From the NCBI GenBank assembly GCA_001790815.1, contig MGDU01000018.1, positions 788-64,787 of the forward strand: a stretch of 64,000 nt of DNA, read 5' to 3'. Made by a program: the position numbers and the translations under genes. Position 1 is the first letter of the stretch; the number at the start of each line of letters is the position of its first letter. The DNA is from Candidatus Uhrbacteria bacterium RIFCSPHIGHO2_02_FULL_46_47. GTDB lineage: Bacteria > Patescibacteriota > Patescibacteriia > GWA2-47-26. This document shows, one piece after another, positions 277-64,000 of this stretch. The notes below the pieces were generated by a model, which was not told the DNA's origin, did not search any database, and was given only the letters and a program-made list of their open reading frames with translations.

Positions 277-281
277 CCTGT

Positions 282-1261: not shown

Positions 1262-1606
1262 TTATTTAACACTCATCACAATCTTTGAAAAGACCTGAGG
1301 GTATTCAATGGCCAGGGTGGACAGCACTTTGCGATCAAGGGCAATGCCTTTTTTATGAAGTGCCGCAATTAGAGTGGAGTACTTCATCCCTTCTTCACGC
1401 GCCGCGGCATTGACCCGGATATTCCAAAGCGCGCGAAATTCACGCTTTTTGCGGCGACGATCAACATAGGCGTGCGCGCCGGCTTTGAGCACAGCCGGAA
1501 TCATCAGGGTAATCTTGGACTTGCGTCCCCACATGTACCCTTTGGTAGCTTGTAAATATTTTTTGCGCCGCTTTACGCGGTGTGTTCCTCGTTTGACTCG
1601 TGGCAT
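1262..1606 (-). CDS. rplT: 50S ribosomal protein L20
   Basis: N-terminus MPRVKRG...; conserved infC-rpmI-rplT operon. Confidence 0.95.
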   Translation of the reverse strand: MPRVKRGTHRVKRRKKYLQATKGYMWGRKSKITLMIPAVLKAGAHAYVDRRRKKREFRALWNIRVNAAAREEGMKYSTLIAALHKKGIALDRKVLSTLAIEYPQVFSKIVMSVK

Positions 1607-1613
1607 AGTGTCT

Positions 1614-1672
1614 GGGTTATGAGTTACGGGTTATGAGTATAATACACTCTTAACTCATCAACTCTTAACTTA
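1614..1672. repeat. intergenic hairpin of tandem 'gttatgagt'-type units (gggttatgagttacgggttatgagtat ... actcttaactcatcaactcttaactta)
   Basis: Inverted arrangement read in sequence between rplT and rpmI. Confidence 0.7.
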
Positions 1673-1678
1673 ATTCCT

Positions 1679-1873
1679 TTAATTCCATGGCATTAATTTC
1701 TTAACATTAGGAGCATGGTGCTCAGAAAACGTAATATCGCGCCGTTTGGTGCGCGTTACATTTCCTGATTCCCGCGCGTTAAAGTGATCTTGCCCACCTT
1801 TGCGGATCAAAACCTTTCCCTTTTTGGTAACTTTAAATCTCTTGGAGAGTGATTTTGGAGTTTTTAATTTCAT
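1679..1873 (-). CDS. rpmI: 50S ribosomal protein L35 (start at internal Met MKLKTPKSLSKRFKVTKKGKV...)
   Basis: L35 signature KRFKVT.KGK; the track ORF is extended at its N-terminus. Confidence 0.9.
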   Translation of the reverse strand: MKLKTPKSLSKRFKVTKKGKVLIRKGGQDHFNARESGNVTRTKRRDITFSEHHAPNVKKLMPWN

Positions 1874-1959
1874 ACATGTGTACGAACCTACGAAAGGGGA
1901 CAAAACTACGAACAATTAAATTTCGTGATTTCGTTATAGTTCGTTGGTTCGTATACGAA

Positions 1960-2496
1960 TTATTTCTTAGCTACTACCATAGAGAGTATTCCTCCTTGAC
2001 GCTCAAATGGTTGATCTATCCTTATATTTGGCAAGGAGGCAACAAAATTCTCAAGAATCTTGCGCGCGAGATCTGCGTGCTCACGCTCACGGCCCTTGAG
2101 AATAATTTCAACACGCACTCGATTCCCCTCTGACATAAAACGCTCCGCCTGATCGCGCCGCACCTGAAGATCATGCTCACCAATACGCAGTGAAAGACGG
2201 ATTCCTTTTACCTCCACGGTCTTGGCGTGTACTTTTTGCTTGCGAATCTCCTTCTCCTTTTGATATTTAAACTGGCCATAGCCGATAATCTTTGCAACCG
2301 GCGGATTGGCTCCGGGATTTAATTCCACCAAATCCATTCCTCGCTCGCGCGCAAGCGCAAGCGCCTTGGAAGTATCCATAACATCCAGGTGTTCGCCATG
2401 CTCGTCAATCACGCGTACTTGCGGTACGCGAATCCACTCGTTGTAGCGAACGAGCGTGGCTTGAACTGGCTTTGGTCTGTGTCGTGATATTCGCAT
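1960..2496 (-). CDS. infC: translation initiation factor IF-3
   Basis: IF-3 N and C domains (…VRVIDEHGEHLDVMDT…GMDLVELNPGANPPVAKIIGYGQFKY…); the true start may be an atypical codon inside the listed ORF. Confidence 0.85.
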   Translation of the reverse strand: MRISRHRPKPVQATLVRYNEWIRVPQVRVIDEHGEHLDVMDTSKALALARERGMDLVELNPGANPPVAKIIGYGQFKYQKEKEIRKQKVHAKTVEVKGIRLSLRIGEHDLQVRRDQAERFMSEGNRVRVEIILKGREREHADLARKILENFVASLPNIRIDQPFERQGGILSMVVAKK

Positions 2497-2502
2497 TTTT
2501 AG

Positions 2503-2881
2503 TGGTGGAGATGAGGGGTATCGAACCCCTGTCTGGAAATAGTGAACTCTTGATGCACTACAAGGTTAGTACTCTTTTGGTTTTAAGCAGAAATCGAAGT
2601 GTACAAACAATATTCTGCCGAGTACCTGCCAAGATTCGGAAATCACATCGTGGCACATAATGTGATACCTATCCTCTTATTACACCAGCAACCCTTTAGA
2701 GGAGTCAAGGACTGATGTGCCCAGCGTTATTAGGCGCGGGCAAAAGCAGGAGCGCGAAACGCGCTCGCTACTGTTGAGAATACGTTTTTGGCATGTATCT
2801 CTTTGCGCGAAGATTTTAGAGCGTACGCGCGTGCTCTCCTTGCACACCTTGAGAATCTTCTCCATCAAAGCCGTTCATCCC
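2503..2881 (-). ncRNA. ssrA: tmRNA (ssrA), about 379 nt. 5' GGGGATG pairs with 3' CATCTCC-A-CCA including a G3:U70 pair. T-arm is GGTTCGATACC. Candidate tag frame ends ...APAFARA with a TAA TAA double stop
   Basis: Reverse complement read directly: 5'-ggggatgaacggctttgatgg...gacaggggttcgatacccctcatctccacca-3'; adjacent to smpB. Confidence 0.85.
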
Positions 2882-2888
2882 CAAATTT

Positions 2889-3374
2889 TCAAGCTTTCCG
2901 TTTTAACTTCTCTCGGATTTCTCGATCAACCGCGCGTTTCTTAATTACCTCGCGTTTTTCGTATTTTTTGCGGCCGCGACCAAGCCCAAGTTCAACTTTC
3001 AAACGGCGTCCCCTAGTATACACGGATAACGGTACAAGTGTCAAGCGCTCGGCCTCAAGCTTACCCATAAGCTCTTTAATTTCCCGGGCGCGCAATAAAA
3101 GCTTGCGGCTACGGGTCGGATCATAACTGGGAAGCGCTCCGGCCTTTTTATACGGGCTGATATGCGCGTTTAACAGCCAGACCTCGCCGGCTTTGAGCGT
3201 GGCATAAGCGCCTTTAAGCGAAACATTACCGCCACGCACGGATTTCACCTCTTGTCCGGAAAGCACAATGCCGGCCTCATAGATTTTAAGGATATCATAA
3301 TCAAATTTTGCTCTAGAATTAGTGGCAAGGGTGGACATAGATAAGTGTAACGTGAAACGTGTAGCGTGTAACAC
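2889..3374 (-). CDS. smpB: SsrA-binding protein SmpB
   Basis: KFDYDIL..YEAGIVLSGQEVKSVR... signature. Confidence 0.95.
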   Translation of the reverse strand: MLHATRFTLHLSMSTLATNSRAKFDYDILKIYEAGIVLSGQEVKSVRGGNVSLKGAYATLKAGEVWLLNAHISPYKKAGALPSYDPTRSRKLLLRAREIKELMGKLEAERLTLVPLSVYTRGRRLKVELGLGRGRKKYEKREVIKKRAVDREIREKLKRKA

Positions 3375-4664: not shown

Positions 4665-6110
4665 CTAAAGCGTTTTTACCACGGCAAAACTTTGCGCGTG
4701 CGGGGCAGGGTGATCACTACTGACTATCACGATTTTACTTCCCTTTTTAAACCCACTGGCGTGCGCTTGAGCAATCAGTTTTTCTTCCAATTCTTTGCGT
4801 GTCGCAACTTCAGGAAGCAAAAATGGCCGTACTCCCCAGGAAAGATTTATTTGGCGCAAAACTCGCGTGAAAGGCGTTCCAATAATCAATTCCACCTCAC
4901 TGCGATAGCGGGAAAGCAAGCGCGCGGTGTGCCCGGTAACCGTGCCGGCCACAATGGCCTTGGCCTCTTCAGTGCGCGCCTGCATGGCGGCCAAAAGCGC
5001 CGTCTCTTCTTCGGGATTTCCATGATGGATTTCTCCGCCAATGGAAAGATCATCAAAGCGGGATTTTTCTGTTTTCTGAATAATGGCGGACATGATGCGC
5101 ACTGTCTCAATAGGATACGCGCCGGTTGCGCTTTCTCCGGAAAGCATGACCGCGTCTGTATGATCAATCACCGCGTTGGCCACATCTGAGGCCTCGGCGC
5201 GGGTTGGCCGCGGCGCGCGCTCCATAGAAGCCAGCATTTCAGTTGCCACAATAACCGGCACAGCCCTCCGGCGGCATTTTTCAATCAGTTCTTTTTGAAT
5301 AAGAGGCACTTCTTCAGGGCTGGTGGCAAGCGCCAAATCACCGCGGGCAATCATCACTCCGTCACAGACGCGCAAAATTTCTTCAAAATTATGTACGGCC
5401 TCGCGGGTTTCTATTTTGACGATAATTTTAATACCCGGAAGCTCAGCTTCCGTACGGAAGCTGAGCTTCCTCAACATCAATTTTCGTAATGCCAGCACAT
5501 CCTCAGCTTTTTTCACAAACGACAACGCCACAAAATCAATGTCTTGGGTTTTACTCCAGGCAATGTCTTTCCTGTCTTTTGATGTTATGGACGGCAACGG
5601 AAGCGAACCGCCGGCAATCGCGATGCCTTTGTGCGACTTAAGCTCTCCGCCAAGTATTACCCGCGCATGAATATCCTTTCCTGTAACACGTTCAACCACG
5701 CACTCAATTGTGCCGTCCGCAATTAGCAAGTGTGCGCCTTTTTTCACATATTTATGAAAATTAGGCACGGCAATAGGAATTTTGAAGTTATGAGTTATTG
5801 AGTTATGGGTTATGAGTATTGAGTTGCCTGTTGTAAAAATAATCTTTTGTCCTACTCTTAACTCATAACTCCTAACTCCTAACTCTCCAATCCTCGCCTT
5901 TGATCCTTGCAAATCAACTATTATTGCAATTGGCTTGCCGGTTTTTTTCTCTATGGCGCGCAAATTGGAAATAACGCGGCTATTCCAATTATAATCTCCA
6001 TGCGACATATTCAACCGCGCCACATTCATCCCTGCGCTTATCATTTTCTCAAGCGTGGCTGGTTTTTCTGATGCAGGACCTATTGTGCAGACAATTTTGG
6101 TTCGTTTCAT
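4665..6110 (-). CDS. pyk: pyruvate kinase carrying two in-frame palindromic-element insertions
   Basis: MKRTKIVCTIGPAS...NVARLNMSHG...; full-length PK. Confidence 0.95.
   Translation of the reverse strand: MKRTKIVCTIGPASEKPATLEKMISAGMNVARLNMSHGDYNWNSRVISNLRAIEKKTGKPIAIIVDLQGSKARIGELGVRSYELRVGQKIIFTTGNSILITHNSITHNFKIPIAVPNFHKYVKKGAHLLIADGTIECVVERVTGKDIHARVILGGELKSHKGIAIAGGSLPLPSITSKDRKDIAWSKTQDIDFVALSFVKKAEDVLALRKLMLRKLSFRTEAELPGIKIIVKIETREAVHNFEEILRVCDGVMIARGDLALATSPEEVPLIQKELIEKCRRRAVPVIVATEMLASMERAPRPTRAEASDVANAVIDHTDAVMLSGESATGAYPIETVRIMSAIIQKTEKSRFDDLSIGGEIHHGNPEEETALLAAMQARTEEAKAIVAGTVTGHTARLLSRYRSEVELIIGTPFTRVLRQINLSWGVRPFLLPEVATRKELEEKLIAQAHASGFKKGSKIVIVSSDHPAPHAQSFAVVKTL
5437..5470. 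repeat. perfect 15-bp inverted repeat ggaagctcagcttcc-gtac-ggaagctgagcttcc inside pyk (encodes …LSFRTEAELP…)
   Basis: Read directly; same family as two copies in der. Confidence 0.8.
5786..5888. repeat. hairpin of tandem 'gttatgagt' units inserted in-frame in the pyk B-domain (encodes …TGNSILITHNSITHNFKIP…)
   Basis: Arms agttatgagttattgagttatgggttatgagtattgagtt / aactcataactcctaactcctaactc. Confidence 0.75.
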
Positions 6111-6117: not shown

Positions 6118-6200
6118 CAATGCGGATGACGCGGATTACCATGCGGATCTACAGATGTCGCGGATGAATTATCCGTAGATCAGCATGAATCCGTAGATCG
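6118..6200. repeat. intergenic hairpin of 'gcggatctac'/'gtagatccg' tandem units between pyk and htrA
   Basis: Read directly. Confidence 0.6.
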
Positions 6201-6212
6201 GCGTTGCGATTA

Positions 6213-7523
6213 TTATTTTAACTCCTCCAACACCACTTTTATTTCTTTTTCCTTTCCTTGGCTTAACACTTTGAGCACCAGCGTATCTCCAACTTTATGC
6301 TTTTGAATCTGTGATGCAAGCGATGTTTCCTCGGTAATCTTGACCTTGTCAATCTCTAAAATAATATCATTTTCACGCAGACTGGCTTTGTCCGCAGGAG
6401 AGCCGGGTACAACTGCAAGATCCGTTCGGCGATCTCCGCGCACAATAAGCGCGCCGTAGTCCACTGGCAATTTATTTTCCTGCGCAAGCTCTGGGTTGAT
6501 AATAATATAGCGCACGCCAAGCCATGGTCGTACAATCCTTCCTACGCTTCTTATACTCTCAATAGCCAGTTTGGCTGGATTTATAGGAATCGCAAAGCCA
6601 ACGTTCTGTCCTGCTGAAGATACGGCGGTATTAATGCCAACTACTTCCCCGCGCAAATTCACCAACGGCCCCCCAGAATTTCCCGGATTAATTGCCGCGT
6701 CGGTCTGTATCGCCTCCTCTATAACTTCAGAGCCAATGCCCGGACCACCGGCAGTAACTCTGCGCTTAATGCCAGAAACAACACCTTTGGTAATAGTGTT
6801 GGAAAATTCTGAAAGAGCGTTTCCGATTGCAATGACTGTTTCGCCGATTTGCAGCTTATCTGAATTGCCAAGCTTTGCTGTTGGAAGATTCTTTGCCTCA
6901 ATCTTAAGAAATCCTAAATCAATGAAGGGATCGCGAGCAAGAACCTTTGCCTCGTAGCGTTTGCCATCTGCGGTCACCACAGTATAGCTTGCCTGATCAT
7001 CAAATATAACGTGCTTGTTCGTAGCAATAAGACCGTCGGAGGCAATAATAAATCCTGTGCCTCCACCAACCTGCCTCCTTTGCGGCGGGCTTTGCGGTTG
7101 CTGCTGCTCCGGCATTTCAATTTCAAATCCAAACTCCCGAAAAAGATCCTCGGGGAAAATAGGGCCGGTTGAGCGCGCAGAGATTTCTTTGGAGATGACA
7201 ATGGAAACCACCGCGGGAGATACTCGCCGCACTACTTCTTCAGTGCTAAGCTCAACTATCGCATTTTTACCCTCACCCTCCCCTCTCCCTAAGGGAGAGG
7301 AATCTACTTTTACTCCCTCTCCCCGTGTGGGAGAGGGTTGGGGTAAGGGGAAGTTACGCGGCACGATCCATTGTAACGACGACGGCAATGACGTACGCAA
7401 ACTCTGTCCCAAATTCCCCGCGGCAATCTGGGTCACCACAATACCGCCGGCAAGTCCTGAAGCGCCACCTACCACAAGACTAATGGCAACTGAAATAATA
7501 ATGGTTTTTCTGAATTCGGACAT
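6213..7523 (-). CDS. HtrA/DegP-family serine protease (trypsin-like domain plus PDZ), membrane anchored, with an in-frame GEGEG-element insertion
   Basis: GNSGGPLVNLRGEVVGINTA; PDZ-like segment; N-terminal TM. Confidence 0.9.
   Translation of the reverse strand: MSEFRKTIIISVAISLVVGGASGLAGGIVVTQIAAGNLGQSLRTSLPSSLQWIVPRNFPLPQPSPTRGEGVKVDSSPLGRGEGEGKNAIVELSTEEVVRRVSPAVVSIVISKEISARSTGPIFPEDLFREFGFEIEMPEQQQPQSPPQRRQVGGGTGFIIASDGLIATNKHVIFDDQASYTVVTADGKRYEAKVLARDPFIDLGFLKIEAKNLPTAKLGNSDKLQIGETVIAIGNALSEFSNTITKGVVSGIKRRVTAGGPGIGSEVIEEAIQTDAAINPGNSGGPLVNLRGEVVGINTAVSSAGQNVGFAIPINPAKLAIESIRSVGRIVRPWLGVRYIIINPELAQENKLPVDYGALIVRGDRRTDLAVVPGSPADKASLRENDIILEIDKVKITEETSLASQIQKHKVGDTLVLKVLSQGKEKEIKVVLEELK
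7279..7362. repeat. GEGEG palindromic element copy (ccctcaccctcccctctccctaagggagagg … ccctctccccgtgtgggagagggttggggtaagggg) inside htrA
   Basis: Read directly; encodes …SPLGRGEGEGK…. Confidence 0.8.
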
Positions 7524-52713: not shown

Positions 52714-54015
52714 ATGCCAGTCACTGAGCTGCTTGCGCTCGTAGATCCTGATCTACCGCGCACCAGTTCAGGGTTGCGCGGTCTATATAAAATCAATTGC
52801 GGCAAGGCCACAAGAATGCGGGAACTTACAAATCTTGTGAGATCACTAGAATCCGCAGGAGGCATCACTGCCCAACGGTACATCATCTGGGCATACTTCC
52901 AAAGGCTCGTGCTTGGGCCGCAAAACGTGTCAGACTCGCAACTCCCGCTTCCACTTCTTGGGGATCCAAACGAACTTTACCAGGCACTTTGCGAACGACT
53001 CATGATCGTGCGCAAAGCGTTACGTAAGTTCCTTCGTCCTTACATCCCAGAACATCTTATACGCGCGCTTTTTTCACGCCATGCTGAAGAAGAGCCACTC
53101 CAAGACATCACGGCAATCGTGATACCGAGTTTCGGGATCATGCCGAAGGAATGGAACCCTTCTTCAGAAGAGCGAAGACTTTCCTTTGAATTACAGCGCG
53201 ACTGTATACTTACGTTCATCAATTACGACCTGCTCAAGCGTGGCAAATGGATCGGTTATAAACGAAGTCACGAGGATTTTCAAGATGTGGCGGAATTCCT
53301 CGTATCGCAAGGGCTACTGGATTCAATACCCGAGCATAAAATAGTGGCTTCGCTGCACGATCCGGGAAACGCGCTACGAACCGTGTGGATTCATGGCATC
53401 GACGGCTTTGCGCCGCCTTATCAGAATCATCTGACGCATCGCACTACAAAACTTGCTTTCACGCATCTGCGCATGGAAGATCACGCTATCCCGGTAATAA
53501 TGCAAGTGCGCAGAAAAGGATTTCTGCAAACGCTCGGAAAATGGCGTGCGGTATATACAGAAAAGCAACAGAAAACGCTTGACCTGGTGCATGACCGGAG
53601 AGGCATTTGTTTTGCCTATAAGTCAATGGAAGAACTTGAGGAGGGAGCGGCTTTCTTGCGTAAACGCCTTCCCTTTAATCAAATTCTTGGAAACGTATGG
53701 GAGCAGTACCATGAATCGCCGGGAGACAACCCCCATAGTGCTTCCAACTTCAGAGCGATTGCCTACTACCGACTGCTTTGCAAATCACCCGGGCGGCGGT
53801 ATCAACTCCAACATCGCCTGATGTCGCAACACATTGGTCTTGTGCATTGCCGGGGAGCAGAAAATCATACTCTTTACCATCTGCGGCAATATACTACCAA
53901 ACCTAATGGCCTGCTTTACTGGCTATTTCCCAAAAGTATCTATGGGATTGATTGGGGAGATGCAACAGTCTTTGAGGAGCTCCTTCATCACGCACTCGCG
54001 TCGCTTCCCGCTTAG
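52714..54015 (+). CDS. hypothetical protein (433 aa), co-oriented with and 71 nt upstream of rel
   Basis: ORF track; no motif recognised. Confidence 0.55.
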   Translation: MPVTELLALVDPDLPRTSSGLRGLYKINCGKATRMRELTNLVRSLESAGGITAQRYIIWAYFQRLVLGPQNVSDSQLPLPLLGDPNELYQALCERLMIVRKALRKFLRPYIPEHLIRALFSRHAEEEPLQDITAIVIPSFGIMPKEWNPSSEERRLSFELQRDCILTFINYDLLKRGKWIGYKRSHEDFQDVAEFLVSQGLLDSIPEHKIVASLHDPGNALRTVWIHGIDGFAPPYQNHLTHRTTKLAFTHLRMEDHAIPVIMQVRRKGFLQTLGKWRAVYTEKQQKTLDLVHDRRGICFAYKSMEELEEGAAFLRKRLPFNQILGNVWEQYHESPGDNPHSASNFRAIAYYRLLCKSPGRRYQLQHRLMSQHIGLVHCRGAENHTLYHLRQYTTKPNGLLYWLFPKSIYGIDWGDATVFEELLHHALASLPA

Positions 54016-54086: not shown

Positions 54087-55580
54087 ATGGATGAACTTCT
54101 GCAGTCACTTCTTTCCGCAGTTACAGGAACTTTTTCTTCCGCGGATATTCAACTTGTAGAGCGTGCGTATAATTTTGCATTTAAAGCACACACAAACCAA
54201 ACGCGATTAAATGGCATGCCTTTTATTACGCATTCCGTCGGCACGGCAGAATTGCTTGCACAATGGAAATTACCTCCTCTTCTTGTAGTTGCCGGACTTT
54301 TGCATGATGTACCGGAGGATACTCCTCTTACTATCAGTGATATTGAAAAAGAATTCGGCAAAGAAATTGCGAACATTGTTGAAGGAGAGACGAAGCTCGA
54401 TCATCTTAAATATCAGGGAGTTGAACGTTACGCCGAAAATCTTCGCAAAATGTTCCTTGCAATAGCAAGCGATATACGGGTTATTTTTGTAAAATTCGCG
54501 GATAGAATTCATAATCTACAAACGCTTGAAGGCATTCCGGAATATAAACAACAACGCATTGCGCTTGAAAGCCTTGAAATCTACGCGCCGATTGCCAATC
54601 GTTTGGGAATGGGCGCGATTCGCGGTGAACTAGAAGATCTTTCTTTCAAATATGTGCATCCTGCAGAATATGCATGGGTCACCTCGCTTGTTCAAGATCG
54701 TCTTAAATATAAAGAAGGGTACCTTGAAACAATCAAAACAATTATTGAGAAAGATCTTAAACAAGGCGGGATTATTCCGATTTCCATTCACGGCCGCACA
54801 AAACACCTTTACAGTTTGTACAAAAAACTTCTTGAAAAAGATCGCGATATTTCTAAAGTATACGATATTGTGGCCGAGCGTATTATTGTGCCAACTGTTC
54901 AAGATTGTTATGCGACGCTTGGCATTCTACACCAACGTTGGAAGCCATTAAAAGGACGCATTAAAGATTACATTGCTCAGCCAAAACCCAATGGCTATCA
55001 ATCTATACACACGACTATTTTTTGCGACGATGGCGAGATTGTAGAGTTCCAAATCCGCACCCCGCAGATGCATGAGGAGGCAGAGTACGGTATCGCGGCA
55101 CATTGGTTTTATGTGGACAAAGGCAAAAAAATCGTGGTAATGGATCACCACTTAAGCTGGCTTAAAGATCTGGTCAAGATTCAAAAAAATATCAATGACC
55201 GCACGAAATTTCTTGAAGCTCTTGAATCTCTCAAAATTGATTTTTTCAATAATCGTATTTTTGTCTTTACTCCCAATGGCGATGTTATTGATCTTCCGGA
55301 AGGAGCCACGCCGGTTGATTTTGCTTATGCCATTCATACTGAAATTGGCAATCATTGCACCTCCGCGCGCGTCAATGATAAAATGACCCAACTGAATGTA
55401 CCTCTACAATCTGGCGATGTAGTTAAAATTACTACTGATAAAAATCGCAAAGGTCCCTCGCCGGATTGGCTCGATTCTGTAAAAACAAATCATGCCCGCG
55501 CAAAGATTAAAGAAGCCGTAAAAAAAACAAAATTCTCGGGCTGGCTCCGAGAGCTCGTGCACCATCGGAAATCAAACTGA
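54087..55580 (+). CDS. rel: RelA/SpoT-family (p)ppGpp synthetase/hydrolase (HD plus synthetase plus TGS, no ACT)
   Basis: HD motif LLHDVPEDT; synthetase EFQIRTPQMHEEAEYGIAAHW; TGS FVFTPNGDVIDLPEGATPVDFAYAIHTEIG. Confidence 0.92.
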   Translation: MDELLQSLLSAVTGTFSSADIQLVERAYNFAFKAHTNQTRLNGMPFITHSVGTAELLAQWKLPPLLVVAGLLHDVPEDTPLTISDIEKEFGKEIANIVEGETKLDHLKYQGVERYAENLRKMFLAIASDIRVIFVKFADRIHNLQTLEGIPEYKQQRIALESLEIYAPIANRLGMGAIRGELEDLSFKYVHPAEYAWVTSLVQDRLKYKEGYLETIKTIIEKDLKQGGIIPISIHGRTKHLYSLYKKLLEKDRDISKVYDIVAERIIVPTVQDCYATLGILHQRWKPLKGRIKDYIAQPKPNGYQSIHTTIFCDDGEIVEFQIRTPQMHEEAEYGIAAHWFYVDKGKKIVVMDHHLSWLKDLVKIQKNINDRTKFLEALESLKIDFFNNRIFVFTPNGDVIDLPEGATPVDFAYAIHTEIGNHCTSARVNDKMTQLNVPLQSGDVVKITTDKNRKGPSPDWLDSVKTNHARAKIKEAVKKTKFSGWLRELVHHRKSN

Positions 55581-56498
55581 CTATTCTGCTGAACCAGAGA
55601 TTTTACCGATAATTTCACTATAATCCTGATCTGAATAAAACTGGATCACAATCTTGCCGCGCTCGCCACTTTTTTCTATTTGTACTTTTGTATTAAGCGT
55701 CTCGCGCAACCGCATCTCATCCGCAAGAAGTGCTGGATCTTTGGTACTGGTACGTTTTCTTCGAATTTTAGGCGCGGCAAGATCCTGCGCCTCGCGCACT
55801 GTTAGACCTTCCCCGACCATGCGGTCAAACACTTCCTTGCGCGCGCGCGGATTATCAATGGATAGAAGGATACGCGCGTGTGCCGGACTGATTTTGCCTG
55901 AAGCAACTGATGTCTGCATCTCAGTTGGAAGCTCTAAAAGCCGCAAGGCGTTAGAAATTGATTCTCGGCTTTTACCAGCTTTCTTTGCGGCTTCTTCCTG
56001 CGTCAAACCAAATGTCTCAACTAGTTCGCGATATGCTTCTGCTTCCTCTATAGGATTGAGATCTTGCCGCTGTATATTTTCAATAAGCGATAGTTCCAAT
56101 TTTTCAAGATCGTCCGCATGGCGCACTACCACTGGCACAGTTTTCAATTTCAGCATTTTGACTGCCCGCAAACGCCGCTCGCCAGCAATAAGCTCAAAAC
56201 GCCCATCGTTTTTTTCAGTAACAATGAGCGGTTCCAAAATCCCGTACTCTTTAATTGAAGCTTTCAGCTCCTGGAGTTTTTCCTCATTAAAAATCGTGCG
56301 CGGCTGGCGCGGATTAGGATCAATGCGATCAGGCGCAACCTGAAGCACGCTCATCACCTCCCCCTCATCAGGATCGTGGGGCGGAAGCACCCTCACCCTA
56401 TCCTCTCCCTGGGGGAGAGGGTGGCCGGAGGTCGGGTGAGGGGTGGGGGCAATGACTCCCGGAATAAGCGAACTTAAACCCTTGCCAAAAGTATCCAT
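55581..56498 (-). CDS. parB: chromosome partitioning protein ParB with an in-frame GEGEG insertion near the N-terminus
   Basis: …KGLSSLIPG…; HTH …GLTQEEAAKKAGKSRESISNALRLL…. Confidence 0.92.
   Translation of the reverse strand: MDTFGKGLSSLIPGVIAPTPHPTSGHPLPQGEDRVRVLPPHDPDEGEVMSVLQVAPDRIDPNPRQPRTIFNEEKLQELKASIKEYGILEPLIVTEKNDGRFELIAGERRLRAVKMLKLKTVPVVVRHADDLEKLELSLIENIQRQDLNPIEEAEAYRELVETFGLTQEEAAKKAGKSRESISNALRLLELPTEMQTSVASGKISPAHARILLSIDNPRARKEVFDRMVGEGLTVREAQDLAAPKIRRKRTSTKDPALLADEMRLRETLNTKVQIEKSGERGKIVIQFYSDQDYSEIIGKISGSAE
56388..56452. repeat. GEGEG element copy inside parB
   Basis: ccctcaccctatcctctccctgggggagagggtggccggaggtcgggtgaggggtggggg. Confidence 0.8.
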
Positions 56499-56501
56499 AC
56501 T

Positions 56502-57704
56502 TTATTTGAAATTTGAAAAAGCTAATTTCTGCTGATTAATGAACGCTAAATTTCGGATATCAATTTTTTTAACTTTAATTTCGGATATTGCTTCTGTTTT
56601 TCCGGTTTTATGAATTACAAATAGATATTCTTTATTAGACCCATTTTTTTCGTTAATCCATTCGTTCGTTGTTCGGGTAATTGTTGACATCACATTCTTT
56701 TTATAATCCATCTCAATAATAGAAACTTTTTTCTTTAAATCTTTGAGAATTTCTTTTATTGCTTGTAAAGTAGCCCTACCATTATTGTTATATGATAAAA
56801 CCACATATTTAGCCGGTGCATTTTTTATCAATTTTTCTATAGCATCAATAACTATATATTGACCTTTATCATTTTTTCTAAACTCTTCAAAAACAGAGCC
56901 TGAGATCATATCGCCCACATCTTCCCGTCTGTTTGCTACTCCAACCAATTTTGGTTGATCATTCAAACAAATTGTTTTCCAAATATGATAATACGAGGCA
57001 TATCGCACCCGAGAGGGTGGCATTAACTCGTTTGAAGAACCATAAGGCGGATCATAATACGCCAAATCAACTTCAATATCATTTACTAAATCAAAAATAT
57101 CTTTTTGATAAACTTTGTGTGGCTTTTCATCAATAATCAAACGAGGCACCTCCATTTTCATTATATTGTAGGCGCGAGGAGCCCATTTTTTCAAATACGA
57201 AACTTGATGACCAACAGAACTATCAACTTTATCCATCGCTATAATTAAACTGGTAAGTAGTACTGATTTTTCAATTTCTTCATTCGCGATTTTATCAATT
57301 TCTTCTCTTATTGCGTCCAATTTTTTAGTATTGTGTATTTGCCAAATTCTTTTTCTGCCGTCTTCTTGTATAGCCGAGCCGCCGTTCGGCTTGCCGCCAT
57401 AATTTTCAGAAAACCAGCCGTATTTCCCGGGAAGTTTATTAAGATGCTCTATCATCGGCAAATAATAACTTACTGGTCTTCTATTTAGAAGATAGCATTC
57501 ACCAAAAACTTTGGACCAATCCGCGATATCGTTGGCATAAACGGTATAGCCGGCTTGCTTTAATGCTTGGGAAACTCTTGTTGTCCCGGAAAAACCATCT
57601 AAAACCGTTTTAACATTCATTGGCCTTATCAATTCTAACAAAGCAGGAAGTATTTCCCTTTTAGAACCGGTGTATTTTACTCCTTGTGTTTTAAGATCAA
57701 ACAT
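56502..57704 (-). CDS. Dam/DpnM-family N6-adenine DNA methyltransferase (type II); AT-rich
   Basis: N-terminal KYTGSKREILPALLELI; DPPY motif (LAYYDPPYG); GC about 38%. Confidence 0.85.
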   Translation of the reverse strand: MFDLKTQGVKYTGSKREILPALLELIRPMNVKTVLDGFSGTTRVSQALKQAGYTVYANDIADWSKVFGECYLLNRRPVSYYLPMIEHLNKLPGKYGWFSENYGGKPNGGSAIQEDGRKRIWQIHNTKKLDAIREEIDKIANEEIEKSVLLTSLIIAMDKVDSSVGHQVSYLKKWAPRAYNIMKMEVPRLIIDEKPHKVYQKDIFDLVNDIEVDLAYYDPPYGSSNELMPPSRVRYASYYHIWKTICLNDQPKLVGVANRREDVGDMISGSVFEEFRKNDKGQYIVIDAIEKLIKNAPAKYVVLSYNNNGRATLQAIKEILKDLKKKVSIIEMDYKKNVMSTITRTTNEWINEKNGSNKEYLFVIHKTGKTEAISEIKVKKIDIRNLAFINQQKLAFSNFK

Positions 57705-57705
57705 A

Positions 57706-58584
57706 CTAAATAGTCATTGATTGCGTCCTTTTTAATTTATCAATGTCTTTCTGCAAAATTTGATTTGCTAGTTTATGGCCATCTTCAGTGCTATTTAACG
57801 CAAGGCCGAATAATTTCACTAATGTATGGTTGTGTGAATAATCTATCCAACCACTGGTTAACGATTCAAAATACGGCAAAGCATTTTTAGTGTGTGTCCA
57901 TAATCCTCTTTGCAATGCGTTCGCTGATGCTCCTCCATATCTTACTTCACATATGTACCCGCCATTATCATTTACGAACATAAAGATAGGGTGTGATCTA
58001 CCTTTACCGGATACCACTTTTTGAGTTTCGAAATTAAATCTTTTATTGACTCCAATATAGACAATTCTTTTTGTCTCGTTAATTGCTTTATTATGATCAA
58101 AAATCATGATATTGCATCGCTGGTTTGTCTCATTATATATAAGAGGTAGTATATTAATGGCACCAAAATTCGCAAATGCCACCGAACTGAAAATAGATTT
58201 TATAATCTTTAAATCGGAAGTGTCTTTCCCCTGTTTTTCAAGAAAGGGGAACATTTTTTGATCGCTATCCGTTGATAATTGAAGTGGGCCGTCACCATAC
58301 GTTTTCAAACTGACAGGAAATTTTTCTTTTGTTATTTCATTGATGATCATTATATCCTCCTCATGTTCTTTTGCGCGAAATAAATCTTTACCTACATGAA
58401 TACTTTTAAAGTCGTACATGAATTGATTAACAAACTCAACCATTCCAATTTCCGCTAAATCACCGTGTGTTTTATTGCCAATAAGGCGCATTGTGAAAAT
58501 ATTGGACAGAGTATTAACAATGAGGGATTTGTTTTTACTGGCCAATAACTTAAATCTTTTTTTAAAATTTTCGAATTGAGTCAT
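57706..58584 (-). CDS. candidate type II restriction endonuclease partner of the Dam-family MTase (DpnII/MboI-like is plausible)
   Basis: Adjacent, co-oriented, same AT-rich composition, 1-nt gap to the MTase; family not verifiable here. Confidence 0.55.
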   Translation of the reverse strand: MTQFENFKKRFKLLASKNKSLIVNTLSNIFTMRLIGNKTHGDLAEIGMVEFVNQFMYDFKSIHVGKDLFRAKEHEEDIMIINEITKEKFPVSLKTYGDGPLQLSTDSDQKMFPFLEKQGKDTSDLKIIKSIFSSVAFANFGAINILPLIYNETNQRCNIMIFDHNKAINETKRIVYIGVNKRFNFETQKVVSGKGRSHPIFMFVNDNGGYICEVRYGGASANALQRGLWTHTKNALPYFESLTSGWIDYSHNHTLVKLFGLALNSTEDGHKLANQILQKDIDKLKRTQSMTI

Positions 58585-58589
58585 AGCTA

Positions 58590-59360
58590 CTAGGTAAGAT
58601 TGAGTATTTTGCTAATTTCGTGCGTTAAATAAATATAGGCCTTGGCGCCTTTACTTTTGGAGGCGTGTTCAAAAATAGTCTTGCCTTGCGCCGGAGCTTC
58701 GGCCAGTTTTACCGTGCGCGGTACCACCACCCGAAAAATTTTGCGCGGAAAGTACCGATACAGTTCAGAAAGAACTTCAGCAGAAAGTTTTTGATTGCCA
58801 GCGTACATGGTAATTAGCGCACCTAACACCATAAGGTTTGGATTCAAATTTTGCTGAACAAGTTGAATCACTGAAATGAGCTGGCCAACGCCTTCAAGCG
58901 CAAAATATTCTGCCTGCACTGGAATCAGCACAGAATCTGCGGCCACAAGCGCGTTTATCACAAAAAGGCCAAGCGAGGGCGGACAATCAATTAAAATATA
59001 ATCATATGAATTGCGAACTTGTGCCAATGCTTCTTTAAGTTTGAACTCACGCCTCTCTGCAGTGACCAATTCCACAGTTGCCCCTGCCAAATCCATAGTG
59101 GCCGGCGCGAGCGAAAGCCGATTAATGCGCGTTGGCACCACAATTGCGGCAAATGGCGCGCGACCAACCAGCGCGTCATACACGCTGGTTTTTAAAATCG
59201 CGCGATTAATTCCTAATCCAGCAGTCGCATTGGCTTGCGGATCAAAATCAACAATTAGCACTGATGATCCCAGCACAGCCAATTGTGCGCCAAGATTAAT
59301 TGTAGTCGTGGTTTTTCCCACGCCACCTTTTTGATTGACAATAGCGATCACTTGTGCCAT
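58590..59360 (-). CDS. parA: ParA/Soj partition ATPase (start at internal Met MAQVIAIVNQKGGVGKTT…)
   Basis: Deviant Walker A KGGVGKTT. Confidence 0.92.
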   Translation of the reverse strand: MAQVIAIVNQKGGVGKTTTTINLGAQLAVLGSSVLIVDFDPQANATAGLGINRAILKTSVYDALVGRAPFAAIVVPTRINRLSLAPATMDLAGATVELVTAERREFKLKEALAQVRNSYDYILIDCPPSLGLFVINALVAADSVLIPVQAEYFALEGVGQLISVIQLVQQNLNPNLMVLGALITMYAGNQKLSAEVLSELYRYFPRKIFRVVVPRTVKLAEAPAQGKTIFEHASKSKGAKAYIYLTHEISKILNLT

Positions 59361-59465
59361 AATAGTATTCAAGTGTATCACGAAATGCAACAAAGCACAA
59401 CGTGCCGGGATGGTGGAACTGCTAGACACACAGGACTCACCTTGCACCACGTTGGGTGCATGGTG

Positions 59466-59500
59466 CCCTGCACTCCACGTAGTGCAGGGCAAAATCGTAT
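59466..59500. repeat. palindrome-containing element copy 1 (ccctgcactccacgtagtgcagggcaaaatcgtatg)
   Basis: Near-identical copy at 59893..59930. Confidence 0.7.
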
Positions 59501-59517
59501 GCCACAAAAATAAATAT

Positions 59518-59766
59518 ATGCACTACGTTTATATCTTGCTCCTATCAAACAAACAGCTCTATACGGGGCGAACAGATGACCTGCGTCGCCGGTTTCAAGA
59601 ACATAAGGATGGCAAAGTTGCGGCGACCAGATACAGACGCCCACTTAAACTTGTATTCTACGAAACGTTCCTCTCAAAAGAAGATGCTATACGAAGGGAG
59701 CGATACTTGAAAACGAGCAAAGGTAAGAGTACACTCAAAATGATGTTAAGAGATTCATTGAAATAA
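59518..59766 (+). CDS. small GIY-YIG nuclease-family protein (UPF0213-like, 82 aa)
   Basis: MHYVYILLLSNKQLYTGRTDDLRRRFQEH…ETFLSKEDAIRRERYLKTSKGK…; internal Met of the track ORF. Confidence 0.8.
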   Translation: MHYVYILLLSNKQLYTGRTDDLRRRFQEHKDGKVAATRYRRPLKLVFYETFLSKEDAIRRERYLKTSKGKSTLKMMLRDSLK

Positions 59767-59771
59767 TATAC

Positions 59772-59855
59772 GCCGGCGTGGCGGAATTGGCAGACGCGCT
59801 GGACTCAAAATCCAGTGGTAGCAATACCGTATCGGTTCGACTCCGATCGCCGGCA
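59772..59855 (+). tRNA. tRNA-Leu (anticodon CAA), long variable arm, no encoded CCA
   Basis: GCCGGCGTGGCGGAATTGGCAGACGCGCTGGACTCAAAATCCAG…GGTTCGACTCCGATCGCCGGCA. Confidence 0.85.
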
Positions 59856-59892
59856 TTAAGACTCACCCTAAACCACGTAGGGTTTAGGGTAC

Positions 59893-59930
59893 CCTGCACT
59901 CTACGTAGTGCAGGGCAAAATCGTATGACC
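59893..59930. repeat. palindrome-containing element copy 2 (ccctgcactctacgtagtgcagggcaaaatcgtatg)
   Basis: Read directly. Confidence 0.7.
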
Positions 59931-59975
59931 GCAAGGTCGTGAGAGTTCGAATCTCTCCCCGGGCATTGACATTAT
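59931..59975 (+). other. orphan tRNA-like 3' half (GAGAG-TTCGAAT-CTCTC T-arm plus CCCGGGC-A acceptor strand) with no matching 5' half
   Basis: Read directly; no GCCCGGG 5' strand found nearby. Confidence 0.25.
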
Positions 59976-60004
59976 TTGCGTAAGAGCGCATAATTAAGGC
60001 TCAT

Positions 60005-60081
60005 AGCGGGGTGGAGCAGCCTGGAAGCTCGCCGGGCCCATAACCCGGAGGTCACTGGTTCAAATCCAGTCCCCGCAACCA
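60005..60081 (+). tRNA. initiator tRNA-fMet (anticodon CAT). It has a 1:72 mismatch, A11:U24, three G:C pairs at the base of the anticodon stem, and an encoded CCA
   Basis: AGCGGGGTGGAGCAGCCTGGAAGCTCGCCGGGCCCATAACCCGGAGGTCACTGGTTCAAATCCAGTCCCCGCAACCA. Confidence 0.85.
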
Positions 60082-60097
60082 TCAGAGCTCCACGAAA

Positions 60098-61168
60098 GTG
60101 GAGTTTTGTTGTAAACTATATCTCATGAATCTATTTTTTGACTCAATCATTATTTTATATCTTATCGCCGCGCTTACCTTTGCCGTAGCGATTTTTTGTG
60201 ACCGCAAAGTGCCTAATAAATGGGAATACAAGCATCCTCGCATTACTCTCGCTGTTTTCATATTTTTATGTTCTAGTGCTCTCGTGGTCTTCTGGGGCTC
60301 ATTTATTGAACCGCGAATTATTACAATCAATCGCGTTTCCATTGACTTGCCCAATTTTGAGCCAACCCAACCGGTTCGCGTCGCGCTTATTTCCGATGTC
60401 CATGTTGGCACTTATAAAAAAGACGGCTGGGTGCGCCGCGTGTCCAACCGCATCATAACCGAACATCCTGACCTTGTACTTATGGCCGGGGATATGATTG
60501 TGGACAAACCTGAACATGCGCAATATCTTTCTGGCTTCCGACTACTGACTACTGACTACCCCGTCTATGCCGTACTTGGCGATCATGATTATCATGTTAG
60601 AAAAAACCCCCGTTTCTCAATTGAAGAATCCACTGCGCAAGTCGTGAATGATACGCTTACCTCCGCCGGCATGCACGTACTGCGCAATGAAGCAAGAGAA
60701 ATAAACATTGGTTGTACAGGGCTTAGCCCTGGGCGTGAAAGGACTAAGCCCTGCAACTTTTGGCTTGTCGGTCTTGATGATTGGCTTGCCGGAAAAACTG
60801 ACTTTGCAACTGCCGTTTCGGTGACTAAACCACCAATCAATGGTAACTTAGTCACCACACCCTTTATCATTCTTGTGCACAATCCCGATTTTATTCTTGA
60901 TCCGCAATCAAAAAATGCCGATCTCATCTTAAGCGGCAATACTCACGGCGGACAAATTCGTATTCCACTGCTTGGACCTGCTCCGCGCCTTCCCTCAGAA
61001 CTTCCTCGAAGCTTTGACGAGGGATTATTTAATTTGCAATATACGGAGGCCTTGCCTCCGGAAAATCGGAGGCAAGGCCTCTTATTTATCACCTCCGGCA
61101 TTTCCGAGTCCGGCCCGCGCGCGCGCCTTTTCAATCCTCCCGAAATCGTTCTTTTAGAACTCCGCTAA
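60098..61168 (+). CDS. membrane-anchored metallophosphoesterase (calcineurin-like)
   Basis: …RVALISDVHVG…LVLMAGDMI…GNTHGG…. Confidence 0.85.
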   Translation: MEFCCKLYLMNLFFDSIIILYLIAALTFAVAIFCDRKVPNKWEYKHPRITLAVFIFLCSSALVVFWGSFIEPRIITINRVSIDLPNFEPTQPVRVALISDVHVGTYKKDGWVRRVSNRIITEHPDLVLMAGDMIVDKPEHAQYLSGFRLLTTDYPVYAVLGDHDYHVRKNPRFSIEESTAQVVNDTLTSAGMHVLRNEAREINIGCTGLSPGRERTKPCNFWLVGLDDWLAGKTDFATAVSVTKPPINGNLVTTPFIILVHNPDFILDPQSKNADLILSGNTHGGQIRIPLLGPAPRLPSELPRSFDEGLFNLQYTEALPPENRRQGLLFITSGISESGPRARLFNPPEIVLLELR

Positions 61169-61443: not shown

Positions 61444-62766
61444 ATGAAAAAAGTGTATGCAGTTGATTTGCTCAACCGCACTTCAAGTGGTATGCGGGTT
61501 GAGCTTTACGGCTGGGTGAAAACTCGCCGCAGACATAATCACGTCGTCTTCTTGGACATCTGCGATTCCACAGGGACGGTTCAAAGCGTGGTTGATGAGA
61601 CCAATAAAGAACTGTTCGAACTGGCAAAGCGGATCAATCAGGAAACGGCAGTAAAGGTTGCTGGAATCCTCACGGAGACCGGGCGACCGAATCCGCCAAA
61701 GGAAATCCGTGTTCGGGAGATCAAAATCGTCGGCGTTGCCACAATCAATGTCTCACCGTATCCGCGATCGGACATTGATATCTTGGACCCAAAACTCCAA
61801 AAGCAACTCCTGGACAAACGGCACTTCTACCTTCGAAATGAAAAGATCGCAGCGATTCTGAAGTTCCGTCATGTCCTCACGCGTATTGTGCATCAGTGGT
61901 TCCATGAAAATGGGTTCATTGAGATTCATGCTCCCGTGCTCACACCGACGCCGCTCTACGATGACCGTTCGGCGATGGCGCTCAAAGTGCATGGGCAAGA
62001 TGTATTCCTAACACAATGTGTCGGGTTCTATCTCGAACAGGCAGTCCATGCCTTCGAGAAGATCTACAATATCGGTCCCAGCTTTCGAGCCGAAGAAAGT
62101 CGCTCCAAGAGACACCTCATGGAATACTGGCACATCAAAGCCGAATTGGCGTTCGTGGATTTCGAGGACATGGTCGCAACGGTAGAGCGGTTCATCCAAG
62201 ATGTAAGCAAGCAAAGCATCCATGAAGGACGTGAGCTTGCACATATCATCGGCACCGAAATGTGCGACGACGGGCTGAAAATTCCGTTTCTGCGCATTGG
62301 CTACGACGAAGCAGTTGAGTGGCTGAAGGCGCAGGGTTCCGACATGGAATTCGGCAAGAGCTTGGGTTCCAATGACGAATCTTTGCTCAGTAGCCGGTTC
62401 GGCAATACCCCATTCTGGGTCGTTGGCATTCCGCGATCCATCGAACCCTTTCCGTACGTGATTGATTCAGCTGATCCGCGTCGCACAAAGACAGCTGATT
62501 TGATTGCAAGCCGAGGGTTCGGCGAACTTCTCGGTATCGCTGAGAAGATTCACGTTCTGTCAATGCTCGATGAGAGATTGACGGAGAAAGGCAAAGCCGG
62601 TGATACCCGCTACGAATGGGTGCGGGAGCTTCGTCAGTACGGCTGTGTGCCGCACGGAGGGTTCGGCATGGGGCTGGAGCGGTTCATCCGTTGGCTCCTG
62701 CAGATTCCGCATGTGCGGGACACCATTCCCTTCCACCGAGCGTTCGGTAGGAGGATCGATCCATGA
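61444..62766 (+). CDS. asnS: asparaginyl-tRNA synthetase (class IIb)
   Basis: FRAEESRSKRHLMEYWHIKAELAF; HGGFGMGLERF…IRDTIPFHR; start at internal Met with an AGGAAG SD. Confidence 0.85.
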   Translation: MKKVYAVDLLNRTSSGMRVELYGWVKTRRRHNHVVFLDICDSTGTVQSVVDETNKELFELAKRINQETAVKVAGILTETGRPNPPKEIRVREIKIVGVATINVSPYPRSDIDILDPKLQKQLLDKRHFYLRNEKIAAILKFRHVLTRIVHQWFHENGFIEIHAPVLTPTPLYDDRSAMALKVHGQDVFLTQCVGFYLEQAVHAFEKIYNIGPSFRAEESRSKRHLMEYWHIKAELAFVDFEDMVATVERFIQDVSKQSIHEGRELAHIIGTEMCDDGLKIPFLRIGYDEAVEWLKAQGSDMEFGKSLGSNDESLLSSRFGNTPFWVVGIPRSIEPFPYVIDSADPRRTKTADLIASRGFGELLGIAEKIHVLSMLDERLTEKGKAGDTRYEWVRELRQYGCVPHGGFGMGLERFIRWLLQIPHVRDTIPFHRAFGRRIDP

Positions 62767-62821
62767 ATGCCACATACACCAAGCCAATCAGGCAAGGCAC
62801 CACCACTGAAAGGAGAAGGAA

Positions 62822-64000
62822 ATGGAACGATCGTTGATCAAAGAACTCGGGTCCAAGAACGGCGAAACCGTTCGGATCTGCGGATGGCTCGAAACGCTTC
62901 GCGATCAAAAAAAGGTACAATTCGTCATCGTGCGCGACCACACCGGCAGAGTCCAGGTCGTGCGCGAGAAGAAGCAAGACTCACTCAGCGCCCTCATCTC
63001 CACGCTCACGGCGGAATCCGCCGTGGAGGTGACCGGCACGGTCGTCGCCAACGAGAAGGTCAAGCTCGGCGGCATCGAGATCGTACTCGATGATCTCAAA
63101 GTCAGCAACGCGGCTCCTCCGATGCTCCCCATCACGGAGGAATCCGGCCTCGACCTGCGACTCGACTGGCGCTTCCTAGACCTGCGCCGTCCTGCCAACC
63201 ATCTGATCTTCCAGGTACAGACGGCAGCGGAGCATGCCATGCGCGAGTACTGGATTAAGGAGGGGTTCATCGAGATCCACTCGCCGAAGTTCATGGGCAG
63301 TGCCAGTGAGTCCGGCGCGGAGCTCTTCCGCGTCGAGTACTTCGGTGGCCACGCCTACCTCGCTCAGTCGCCGCAGTTCTACAAGCAGATGGCGATGGCA
63401 GCGGGCTTCGATCGCGTGTTCGAGATCGGACCGGTGTTCCGTGCAAATCCGTCGTTCACATCCCGCCACGACACGGAGTTCACCAGCGTGGACGTGGAGA
63501 TCTCGTGGGTCGAGTCGCACGACGATGTCATGAAGTTCGAGGAGCGGTGGCTGCAGTACGTGCTCCAGTCCCTCCGGGACAAGCTCGGCGAGGTCATCAC
63601 CAAGCACTTCGGTGTCGAGGTGACTATTCCCACGGTGCCGTTCCCGCGAATCAGCATGACCGAGGCCTATGCGATCCTCGCGCAACGCGGTCACGTCCTC
63701 TCCGCCGAGACCAAGGGCGACCTTGACCCGGAGGGAGAGCGTCAGCTCTGCGCTCACATCAAGGAGCAGACGGGTCACGACTTCGTGTTCGTGACGGACT
63801 ATCCCATCTCCGTGCGTCCTTTCTACCACATGCGCCACGCGGACAATCCCGCCATCACCAAGAGCTTCGACCTTCTCTGGAAGGGGCTCGAAGTAACGAC
63901 GGGTGCTCAGCGCGAGCATCGGTACGACATCCTCACGCAGCAGGCGAAGGAGAAAGGACTCACTCCCGAGCCGATCAAGCACTACCTGGACTGCTTCCGC
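62822..64000 (+). CDS. aspS: aspartyl-tRNA synthetase, archaeal/non-discriminating type (5' partial at the window end); GC-rich (about 62%) with an SD
   Basis: MERSLIKELG…RFLDLRRP…GPVFRANPSFTSRHDTEFTSVD…HYLDCFR; not in the ORF track because it has no stop codon. Confidence 0.85.
   Translation, partial: MERSLIKELGSKNGETVRICGWLETLRDQKKVQFVIVRDHTGRVQVVREKKQDSLSALISTLTAESAVEVTGTVVANEKVKLGGIEIVLDDLKVSNAAPPMLPITEESGLDLRLDWRFLDLRRPANHLIFQVQTAAEHAMREYWIKEGFIEIHSPKFMGSASESGAELFRVEYFGGHAYLAQSPQFYKQMAMAAGFDRVFEIGPVFRANPSFTSRHDTEFTSVDVEISWVESHDDVMKFEERWLQYVLQSLRDKLGEVITKHFGVEVTIPTVPFPRISMTEAYAILAQRGHVLSAETKGDLDPEGERQLCAHIKEQTGHDFVFVTDYPISVRPFYHMRHADNPAITKSFDLLWKGLEVTTGAQREHRYDILTQQAKEKGLTPEPIKHYLDCFR

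Follow-up and report, generated by a model that had tools for sequence, protein, structure and literature searches.

Restriction-modification (R-M) systems behave as mobile units and undergo "allelic substitution" between conserved flanks, which is an established class of R-M rearrangement (Furuta et al. 2010, PMC2853133), and in Neisseria meningitidis the type II R-M system that occupies the interval between pheS and pheT varies from lineage to lineage (PMC7973814, PMC3082526). Bacteria of the Candidate Phyla Radiation (CPR, or Patescibacteria) mostly lack CRISPR and are thought to rely on R-M and abortive-infection systems (PMC4742961). How their streamlined genomes gain, keep, and exchange R-M systems is poorly known, and the locus described here is a concrete, testable example. 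It lies in a 64-kb stretch (the window, by which we mean the whole of this DNA) from the groundwater CPR bacterium Candidatus Uhrbacteria, where an AT-rich pair of genes, encoding a restriction endonuclease homolog (R) and an adenine methyltransferase (M), separates the partition genes parA and parB. We consider it quite likely that this pair belongs to the SspI family of type IIP R-M systems, was acquired horizontally, is a recombinant of two sub-lineages (A and B) of that family, was inserted into the parA-parB spacer, which is a recurrent slot for such cassettes, and forms one co-expressed unit with the partition genes.

Layout and composition of the locus

The minus strand carries four open reading frames (ORFs) in head-to-tail order, namely parA, R, M, and parB, with the coordinates that the original prediction had given for them. 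The features of the locus are as follows:

59360..58590, minus strand: parA, 256 amino acids (aa), Walker-type partition ATPase, first in the four-gene unit (Pfam AAA_31, E 1e-64; CbiA, E 1e-27)
58590..58640, minus strand: 3' tail of parA, AT-rich and divergent, roughly the last 16 codons, ending ...AYIYLTHEISKILNLT and the stop
58584..57706, minus strand: R, 292 aa, restriction endonuclease homolog assigned to the SspI family, sub-lineage A (PADLOC PDLC03568)
57690..57730, minus strand: R/M junction at which the two sub-lineages are joined, with the R tail RTQSMTI, a 1-nt spacer, and the M start MFDLK
57704..56502, minus strand: M, 400 aa, predicted alpha-class D12 N6-adenine methyltransferase, sub-lineage B (PF02086)
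56498..55581, minus strand: parB, 305 aa, last in the unit (Pfam ParB_N, E 6e-30; HTH_ParB, E 1e-33; NCBIfam TIGR00180, E 4e-54)
55534..55552, minus strand: terminator-like hairpin directly past the parB stop, a consensus match only

The spacers, as read from the sequence, are 5 nucleotides (nt) between parA and R (TAG-tagct-ATG), 1 nt between R and M (TAG-t-ATG), and 3 nt between M and parB (TAA-agt-ATG), in line with the gaps of 1-5 nt noted earlier among the four genes. The parA start, an ATG at 59360, agrees with all relatives; the ORF lister runs on to a TTG at 59507. The setting is that of a chromosomal ParABS locus, in which a ParA ATPase is followed by a two-domain ParB and the neighbors are topA, relA/spoT, and an aminoacyl-tRNA synthetase gene. 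A canonical parS site (TGTTNCACGTGAAACA; TGTTTCACGTGAAACA), sought with up to 3 mismatches, is absent from the window, though the parS sites of CPR bacteria may differ, and a search of the window for a replication origin found none.

The composition of the cassette sets it apart from its surroundings, as its G+C content (GC) is 33.7% versus 48.5% for the whole window. This is the lowest value of 290 equal-sized segments (z about -5), the next lowest being 41.9%. The cassette had been described as AT-rich against a background near 48%, both of which hold, whereas the 38% then given for the cassette itself was too high. Across the family, R-M cassettes have a GC of 31-38% irrespective of their host flanks, which range from 32% to 52%.

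The endonuclease homolog, the methyltransferase, and their predicted target

R matches the PADLOC profile REase_II PDLC03568, which derives from REBASE, with an E-value of 7.8e-109 over residues 4-290 of its 292 and profile positions 6-279 of 281. It is 78% identical to a protein (P0034) that is titled "SspI" in two NCBI records, KKT24480.1 and OGZ41788.1. Its homologs form more than 3,800 clusters at 90% identity, of which the best 120 are 74-81% identical to R and come from many CPR phyla, Deltaproteobacteria, Ignavibacteria, and Planctomycetes. R is full length, without a frameshift, and keeps all columns that are invariant in the 120-sequence alignment. By sequence, it has no match in Pfam, NCBIfam, or the PDB, and a profile of both sub-lineages likewise finds nothing in the PDB. 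Of two AlphaFold (AF2) models, the first has weak top PDB matches to R.SwaI (E 0.012, template-modeling score 0.20-0.25), HincII, PaqCI, the SPARDA nuclease, and Hjc, all of which are PD-(D/E)XK enzymes. Further, the residues E45...D77...S92-x-K94 are invariant in both R sub-lineages and constitute a candidate catalytic motif.

M matches PF02086 (MethyltransfD12) with an E-value of 3.3e-22 and 79.9 bits, versus a gathering cut-off of 22, as well as PADLOC MTase_II PDLC03342 (E 5.8e-138). The motifs LDGFSGTT and YYDPPYG, which represent S-adenosylmethionine-binding and catalytic motifs, are present and conserved in both sub-lineages. At the Pfam level, M is therefore a D12/Dam-class enzyme, as its earlier assignment to the Dam/DpnM family had implied. 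It resembles Dam, DpnM, and M.EcoRV (D12, alpha group) in its PF02086 match above the gathering score and in its motif order (FxGxG ... DPPY). Unlike the Dam family, however, nothing about M points to GATC specificity, none of the solved structures of that family matches its sequence significantly, and the enzyme with which it is paired suggests another target, a hexamer made up of A and T alone. GATC is slightly over-represented in the window (266 occurrences versus 237 +/- 13 expected, with 1 of 100 shuffles reaching 266).

R and M adjoin each other, co-oriented and 1 nt apart, and this pairing recurs in all 16 distinct family loci that were examined. Because both genes match R-M profiles in PADLOC, and because R is 78% identical to a protein named SspI, we assign the pair, on sequence grounds, to the type IIP R-M systems of the SspI family. 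SspI is a type IIP enzyme that cuts AAT^ATT. We take AATATT to be the target expected of the window pair by way of its SspI-family R, and since R is an SspI-family homolog, AATATT is probably a likelier target than GATC, the site at which a methylation test had been suggested earlier; a Dam-like GATC reading was set aside, as another site is expected from such a partner. M would thus modify an adenine within the endonuclease site, predicted to be AATATT, R would cut unmodified incoming DNA, and the pair would act as an ordinary defense and addiction module. As enzymes, R and M are unremarkable representatives of a family that is very widespread, and neither a new type of enzyme nor a new mechanism is seen here.

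Homologs of R are absent from the plasmid and phage collections searched, and IMG/VR holds five contigs with R homologs at about 50% identity. Three of these predicted viral contigs (L116, L117, and L120) have no D12 methylase near the R homolog, and another (L118) carries homologs of both R and the D12 methylase, about 50% identical. Judging by these contigs, the methylase partner of the R module seems to vary.

Hybrid ancestry of the cassette

Two sub-lineages can be told apart among the family cassettes. In lineage A (L007-L011 and L098-L102), an R of about 287 aa overlaps an M of 370-376 aa by 4 nt (ATGA; 1 nt in L098). In lineage B (L092-L097), R is about 270 aa long and is followed, after 24-72 nt, by an M of 393-404 aa; some of these loci also have a helix-turn-helix controller gene. 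The window R is 78% identical to the A-type proteins compared directly (81% to its nearest homolog) versus 44-46% to B-type R, whereas the window M is 86.5-88% identical to the B-type proteins compared directly (up to 90% among homologs) versus 47-50% to A-type M. In all six distinct loci examined for it, an A-type R is paired with an A-type M of 370-376 aa. By these comparisons, the window cassette is a recombinant whose R derives from sub-lineage A and whose M derives from sub-lineage B.

The switch of lineage falls between R residue 285, where the A-type alignment ends, and M residue 4, where the B-type alignment starts. Here the window R gained the 7-residue C-terminal tail RTQSMTI, the ATGA overlap with M was lost, and M acquired the new start MFDLK. 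The short strings ATGACT and ATGTTTG at this junction look like the beginning (5' end) of an A-type M gene and may be remnants of one, which suggests recombination inside the conserved M start encoding KT(E/Q)GIKY. Moreover, A-type and B-type M align collinearly over their full length, and since they are collinear homologs, a specificity shared by both sub-lineages, and hence by the A-type R and the B-type M of the window, is plausible, though unproven. The locus could serve as an example of shuffling between R and M modules in which the two specificities had to stay matched.

A hybrid of this kind could also be a decaying or partly inactive system, with an orphan-like methylase and a silenced or inactivated endonuclease, in which a mismatch between R and M would be tolerated. 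Such decay would fit an R and M that did not co-evolve, the unusual 7-residue extension of R together with the loss of its native overlap with M, the lack of a visible ribosome-binding site before R, a window in which AATATT is not avoided, and a nuclease fold that the models do not confirm. Against it stand the intact length and reading frame of R, its retention of every residue invariant across 120 homologs, the identity of the R protein in contigs of many samples, and the plausible shared specificity of the two collinear sub-lineages. We therefore regard decay as unlikely, if the strongest of the alternatives.

The parA-parB junction in relatives

For comparison, we surveyed 80 GTDB species (39-53% ParB identity among the matches listed) and four clade relatives, the closest relatives having been reached by a ParB protein search and by a scan of metagenomes with a clade-specific C-terminal ParB alignment. 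The window ParA is 77-82% identical to the ParA of these four clade relatives (L108, L109, L112, and L114). Both genes were present at 79 loci, where the gap from the parA stop to the parB start has an estimated median of 8 nt and is below 100 nt in 68 of 79; the view that parA and parB are normally adjacent is well borne out. None of these 79 parA-parB loci contains the window R or M gene. Within the close clade, the junction appears in the following states:

L109/L111 (GW2011_GWA2_42_28), ParB 69% identical to that of the window: empty, with a 9-nt spacer and a Shine-Dalgarno-like AGGTGA before parB
L114/L115, ParB 68% identical: empty, with a 131-nt AT-rich spacer
L108 (GCA_030674435.1), ParB 75% identical: a 263-aa protein named "restriction endonuclease" by NCBI and a 401-aa C5-cytosine methylase (PF00145, E 7e-77)
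L112 (OBEQ010008179.1), ParB 67% identical: a gamma-class N6-adenine methylase of 515/531 aa (PADLOC, E 9e-140; Pfam N6_Mtase and Eco57I) and a 219-aa ORF

The empty sites of L109 and L114 supply the comparison that had been called for earlier, and they show that a foreign, AT-rich pair separates normally adjacent genes in the window, as the original prediction of an R-M insertion between parA and parB had it. The L108 cassette has spacers of 12, 12, and 15 nt and a GC of about 30% versus about 48% in its flanks. In L112, the methylase overlaps the 219-aa ORF, which belongs to no family, by 4 nt, and the cassette ends 9 nt before parB, with a GC of about 38% versus 50-56% in the flanks. The six proteins of the three cassettes (window, L108, and L112) have no detectable similarity to one another. 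All three cassettes are tightly packed and co-oriented with parAB, and the flanking synteny is kept, with a Metallophos gene upstream, then parA and parB, a convergent RelA/SpoT gene abutting parB, and topA beyond. Within one Uhrbacteria clade, the parA-parB junction is thus a slot that R-M cassettes occupy recurrently, since two sister species hold unrelated R-M pairs there; a spacer of a few nucleotides in an otherwise invariant housekeeping operon took at least three unrelated R-M cassettes across sister species.

The same states of the junction could have arisen in another order, with an R-M system ancestral to the parA-parB interval of the clade, the empty sites being secondary deletions and the differing cassettes replacements in place. 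Three of five clade species are occupied, the empty L114 retains a 131-nt AT-rich spacer with internal repeats that is possibly a scar, and L108 and L112 have TTTGTT-ATG in common directly before parB. However, the more distant Uhrbacteria and the other CPR genomes examined all have parA and parB adjacent, the L109 site is clean, with its 9-nt spacer and AGGTGA, and the cassettes are unrelated to one another and all compositionally foreign. This alternative, which differs from separate insertion only in the order of events and not in the nature of the element, appears improbable to us.

Other contents of the junction were also seen. In L056, a CPR genome labeled "uncultured Gammaproteobacteria", a lone 129-aa ORF at 5597-5988 (MKTYKFKYDKLVRDNIPELIEKNG...; 25% GC), without a convincing family match, lies in the parA-parB junction, 1-2 nt from the flanking genes. 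Because of this single ORF, the junction is seen to take non-R-M cargo as well. Some "empty" junctions (L114 at 6186-6316, as well as L015, L025, and L076) contain AT-rich, non-coding spacers of 124-309 nt with 15-25% GC and internal direct and inverted repeats, which may represent either regulatory DNA or the scars that lost cassettes left behind. In L109, whose parA-parB site is empty, an EcoRV-like endonuclease (Pfam Endonuc-EcoRV; PADLOC REase_II, E 1.5e-39) and a D12 methylase lie beside a phage-type integrase at 1-3277, which is 2-5 kb upstream of parA.

Expression within the partition operon

Of four terminator-like sites in 55400..60100, none falls in the interval from the parA stop to the parB stop; a weak minus-strand site at 59276-59258 falls within parA and has a tail that is not T-rich. 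At the locus examined, the cassette has no controller gene, no terminator of its own, and no flanking repeat. Given this, together with the common orientation of the genes and their spacers of 5, 1, and 3 nt, a single parA-R-M-parB unit is most likely, and the cassette would be transcribed from the parA promoter. Because R, M, and parB are not preceded by any visible Shine-Dalgarno-like sequence, translation depends on an assumed coupling, in which the three genes would be translated by termination-reinitiation. At the empty site of L109, the AGGTGA of parB sits inside the end of parA; it is gone in the window.

The earlier suggestion that the R-M genes are co-expressed with the partition genes, and are hard to lose, is plausible from the gene arrangement. 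As the cassette lies between two partition genes, its imprecise deletion would probably be costly, and the locus could provide a natural test of whether embedding in an operon stabilizes selfish R-M genes.

Such close packing might instead reflect domestication of the pair for chromosome biology, with a methylase that marks origin-proximal or partition DNA and a second protein linked to segregation. In favor of this are the tight fit of the pair inside parAB, where no spacer exceeds 5 nt and no terminator intervenes, and the fixation of the pair in all sampled contigs of the species. Yet relatives cope with parA and parB adjacent, and the pairs that occupy the slot in sister species are biochemically unrelated (a 5-methylcytosine enzyme and a gamma-class N6-methyladenine enzyme), so that no specific function is conserved. 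In addition, near-identical cassettes occur in unrelated contexts across many phyla, and the composition is foreign, all of which makes domestication very improbable.

Occurrence in the sampled population

Contigs that carry an identical endonuclease or an identical ParB (23 contigs each) were compared at the places shown. With an identical endonuclease, the order parA-R-M-parB is found in six of six distinct places, from several JGI (Joint Genome Institute) and ENA samples; with an identical ParB, it is found in four of five, and the fifth breaks off inside the methylase. No empty site occurs within the species at any of these places, and the cassette is fixed in the sampled population. An assembly or binning chimera that fused an AT-rich R-M fragment to parA and parB, which the sharp GC steps at both junctions might suggest, has practically no standing and was rejected, because the four-gene arrangement is repeated in several independent samples and assemblies (JGI, ENA k141, and ANAN16 scaffolds), its junctions recur in every informative place shown, and the contigs containing them reach 159 kb.

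Route of acquisition

In the window, in L108, and in L112, we found at the junctions no target duplications, no terminal inverted repeats, and no flanking repeats, including direct repeats of more than 30 bp, and no integrase or transposase adjoins the cassette in the contigs shown. The end of the window parA is anomalous, as its last 48 nt have a GC of 31% versus 44-62% in the four relatives, and the last 32 aligned residues of ParA are 47-56% identical to those of the relatives versus a typical 80-90%. This tail (IYLTHEISKILNLT; ending ...YIYLTHEISKILNLT) departs from the clade consensus VHLAMEI... yet keeps its pattern, and its AT-rich part may be the left edge of imported DNA. The left crossover would then lie inside parA, with donor DNA bringing its own parA end. 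Such a divergent tail would be expected from a donor parA end, but the evidence is thin, at about 16 codons; the most likely route is one in which cassettes would be exchanged or replaced by homologous recombination across the conserved parA and parB flanks.

Several points count against our proposal of an active SspI-family system that recombined into a recurrent slot: (i) both AF2 models of R are poor (predicted local distance difference test scores of 62.5 and 64.7), and a structure search with the second returned no nuclease matches, so that the earlier label of candidate restriction endonuclease holds through the REase_II profile match and its nuclease fold is not confirmed; (ii) the link to SspI comes from the names of two NCBI records, rather than from the characterized R.SspI and M.SspI sequences; (iii) AATATT is not depleted in the window (25 occurrences versus 27.7 +/- 5.1 expected per 64 kb), which does not exclude AATATT specificity; (iv) the protection that a B-type M would afford against an A-type R is putative; (v) R, M, and parB lack the Shine-Dalgarno-like sequences mentioned above; (vi) the close clade is a small sample of five relatives; and (vii) the case for the recombination route consists of the absent repeats and mobility genes plus a 16-codon anomalous parA tail.

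A more general proposal, which we advance tentatively and which may well prove wrong, is that the parA-parB junction of this CPR branch is a minimal, promoterless "defense slot", through which two-gene R-M systems would be swapped between species by way of the parA and parB flanks, with the parA tail as a donor remnant and with expression solely by read-through and coupling. If so, restriction and methylation would be coupled to how the segregation machinery is expressed, imprecise loss of a cassette would damage parA or parB, and the slot would combine built-in addiction with a safe harbor for genomes too small for defense islands. The locus could also be used as a marker of defense turnover in groundwater populations.

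Other features of the window

A GC-rich palindrome (CCTCTCCC-N3-GGGAGAGG) occurs in 17 copies in the window versus 0.12 expected, at 7282, 8350, 10294, 10753, 11012, 17634, 42444, and 48714, among others, and inside parB (56391-56431). The copy in parB keeps the reading frame and contributes ...HPLPQGEDR... to the N-terminal linker of the protein; in L108, ParB has two copies, and the same inserted peptide occurs in several ParBs of the clade. The palindrome looks like an element of the REP (repetitive extragenic palindromic) or MITE (miniature inverted-repeat transposable element) type that is able to sit within coding sequence.

Between relA/spoT and the gene for a 23S-rRNA-IVS (intervening sequence) protein lies a plus-strand ORF of 433 aa (52714-54015) without a Pfam match. 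All complete contigs shown for the species include it, and L108 and L109 have other genes in its place. Directly upstream of parA, and divergent from it, is a small GIY-YIG ORF on the plus strand (59533-59766; Pfam, E 8e-13), whose length call varies among contigs of the same species or which is left uncalled. Toward the end of the window (62400-64000), the GC climbs to 0.56-0.62 versus about 0.48 elsewhere, and a 268-aa ORF lies on the minus strand (63176..63982). A contig of the same species has an IS200-like Y1 transposase beyond the neighboring tRNA-synthetase genes.

Comparison with known systems

Like the SspI system, the window pair has an endonuclease of about 280-290 aa beside an N6-adenine methylase, and its R fits a REBASE-derived PADLOC endonuclease profile over its full length. 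It differs from that system in that R and M stem from two separate sub-lineages, and in that the pair lacks a controller gene and lies within a housekeeping operon.

The closest parallel to the position of the cassette is the pheS/pheT interval of Neisseria, where, as here, unrelated R-M systems occupy one short interval between conserved, functionally linked housekeeping genes. In agreement with allelic substitution, the window, L108, and L112 hold three unrelated pairs between orthologous parA and parB genes. In contrast to the Neisseria case, the flanks here are CPR partition genes, the spacers are just 1-15 nt and the cassettes appear promoterless, and the variation is between species, with no within-species polymorphism found in the contigs shown. 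The long target duplication of the Kobayashi type is likewise absent from the junctions of all three cassettes. Our literature search found no report of an R-M system between parA and parB, and we found none in a recent study of horizontal gene transfer in Patescibacteria.

The slot also resembles defense hotspots and islands flanked by core genes, in that a fixed position between conserved genes gathers differing defense cargo. It differs from these in holding a single two-gene cassette, in lying inside an operon rather than between operons, and in having no associated integrase, tRNA, or repeats. While the phenomenon itself, R-M allelic substitution between conserved genes, is known, this locus adds to the known cases a host operon of partition genes, an extreme packing without apparent promoters, and an R and an M that, by their sequences, belong to different sub-lineages.

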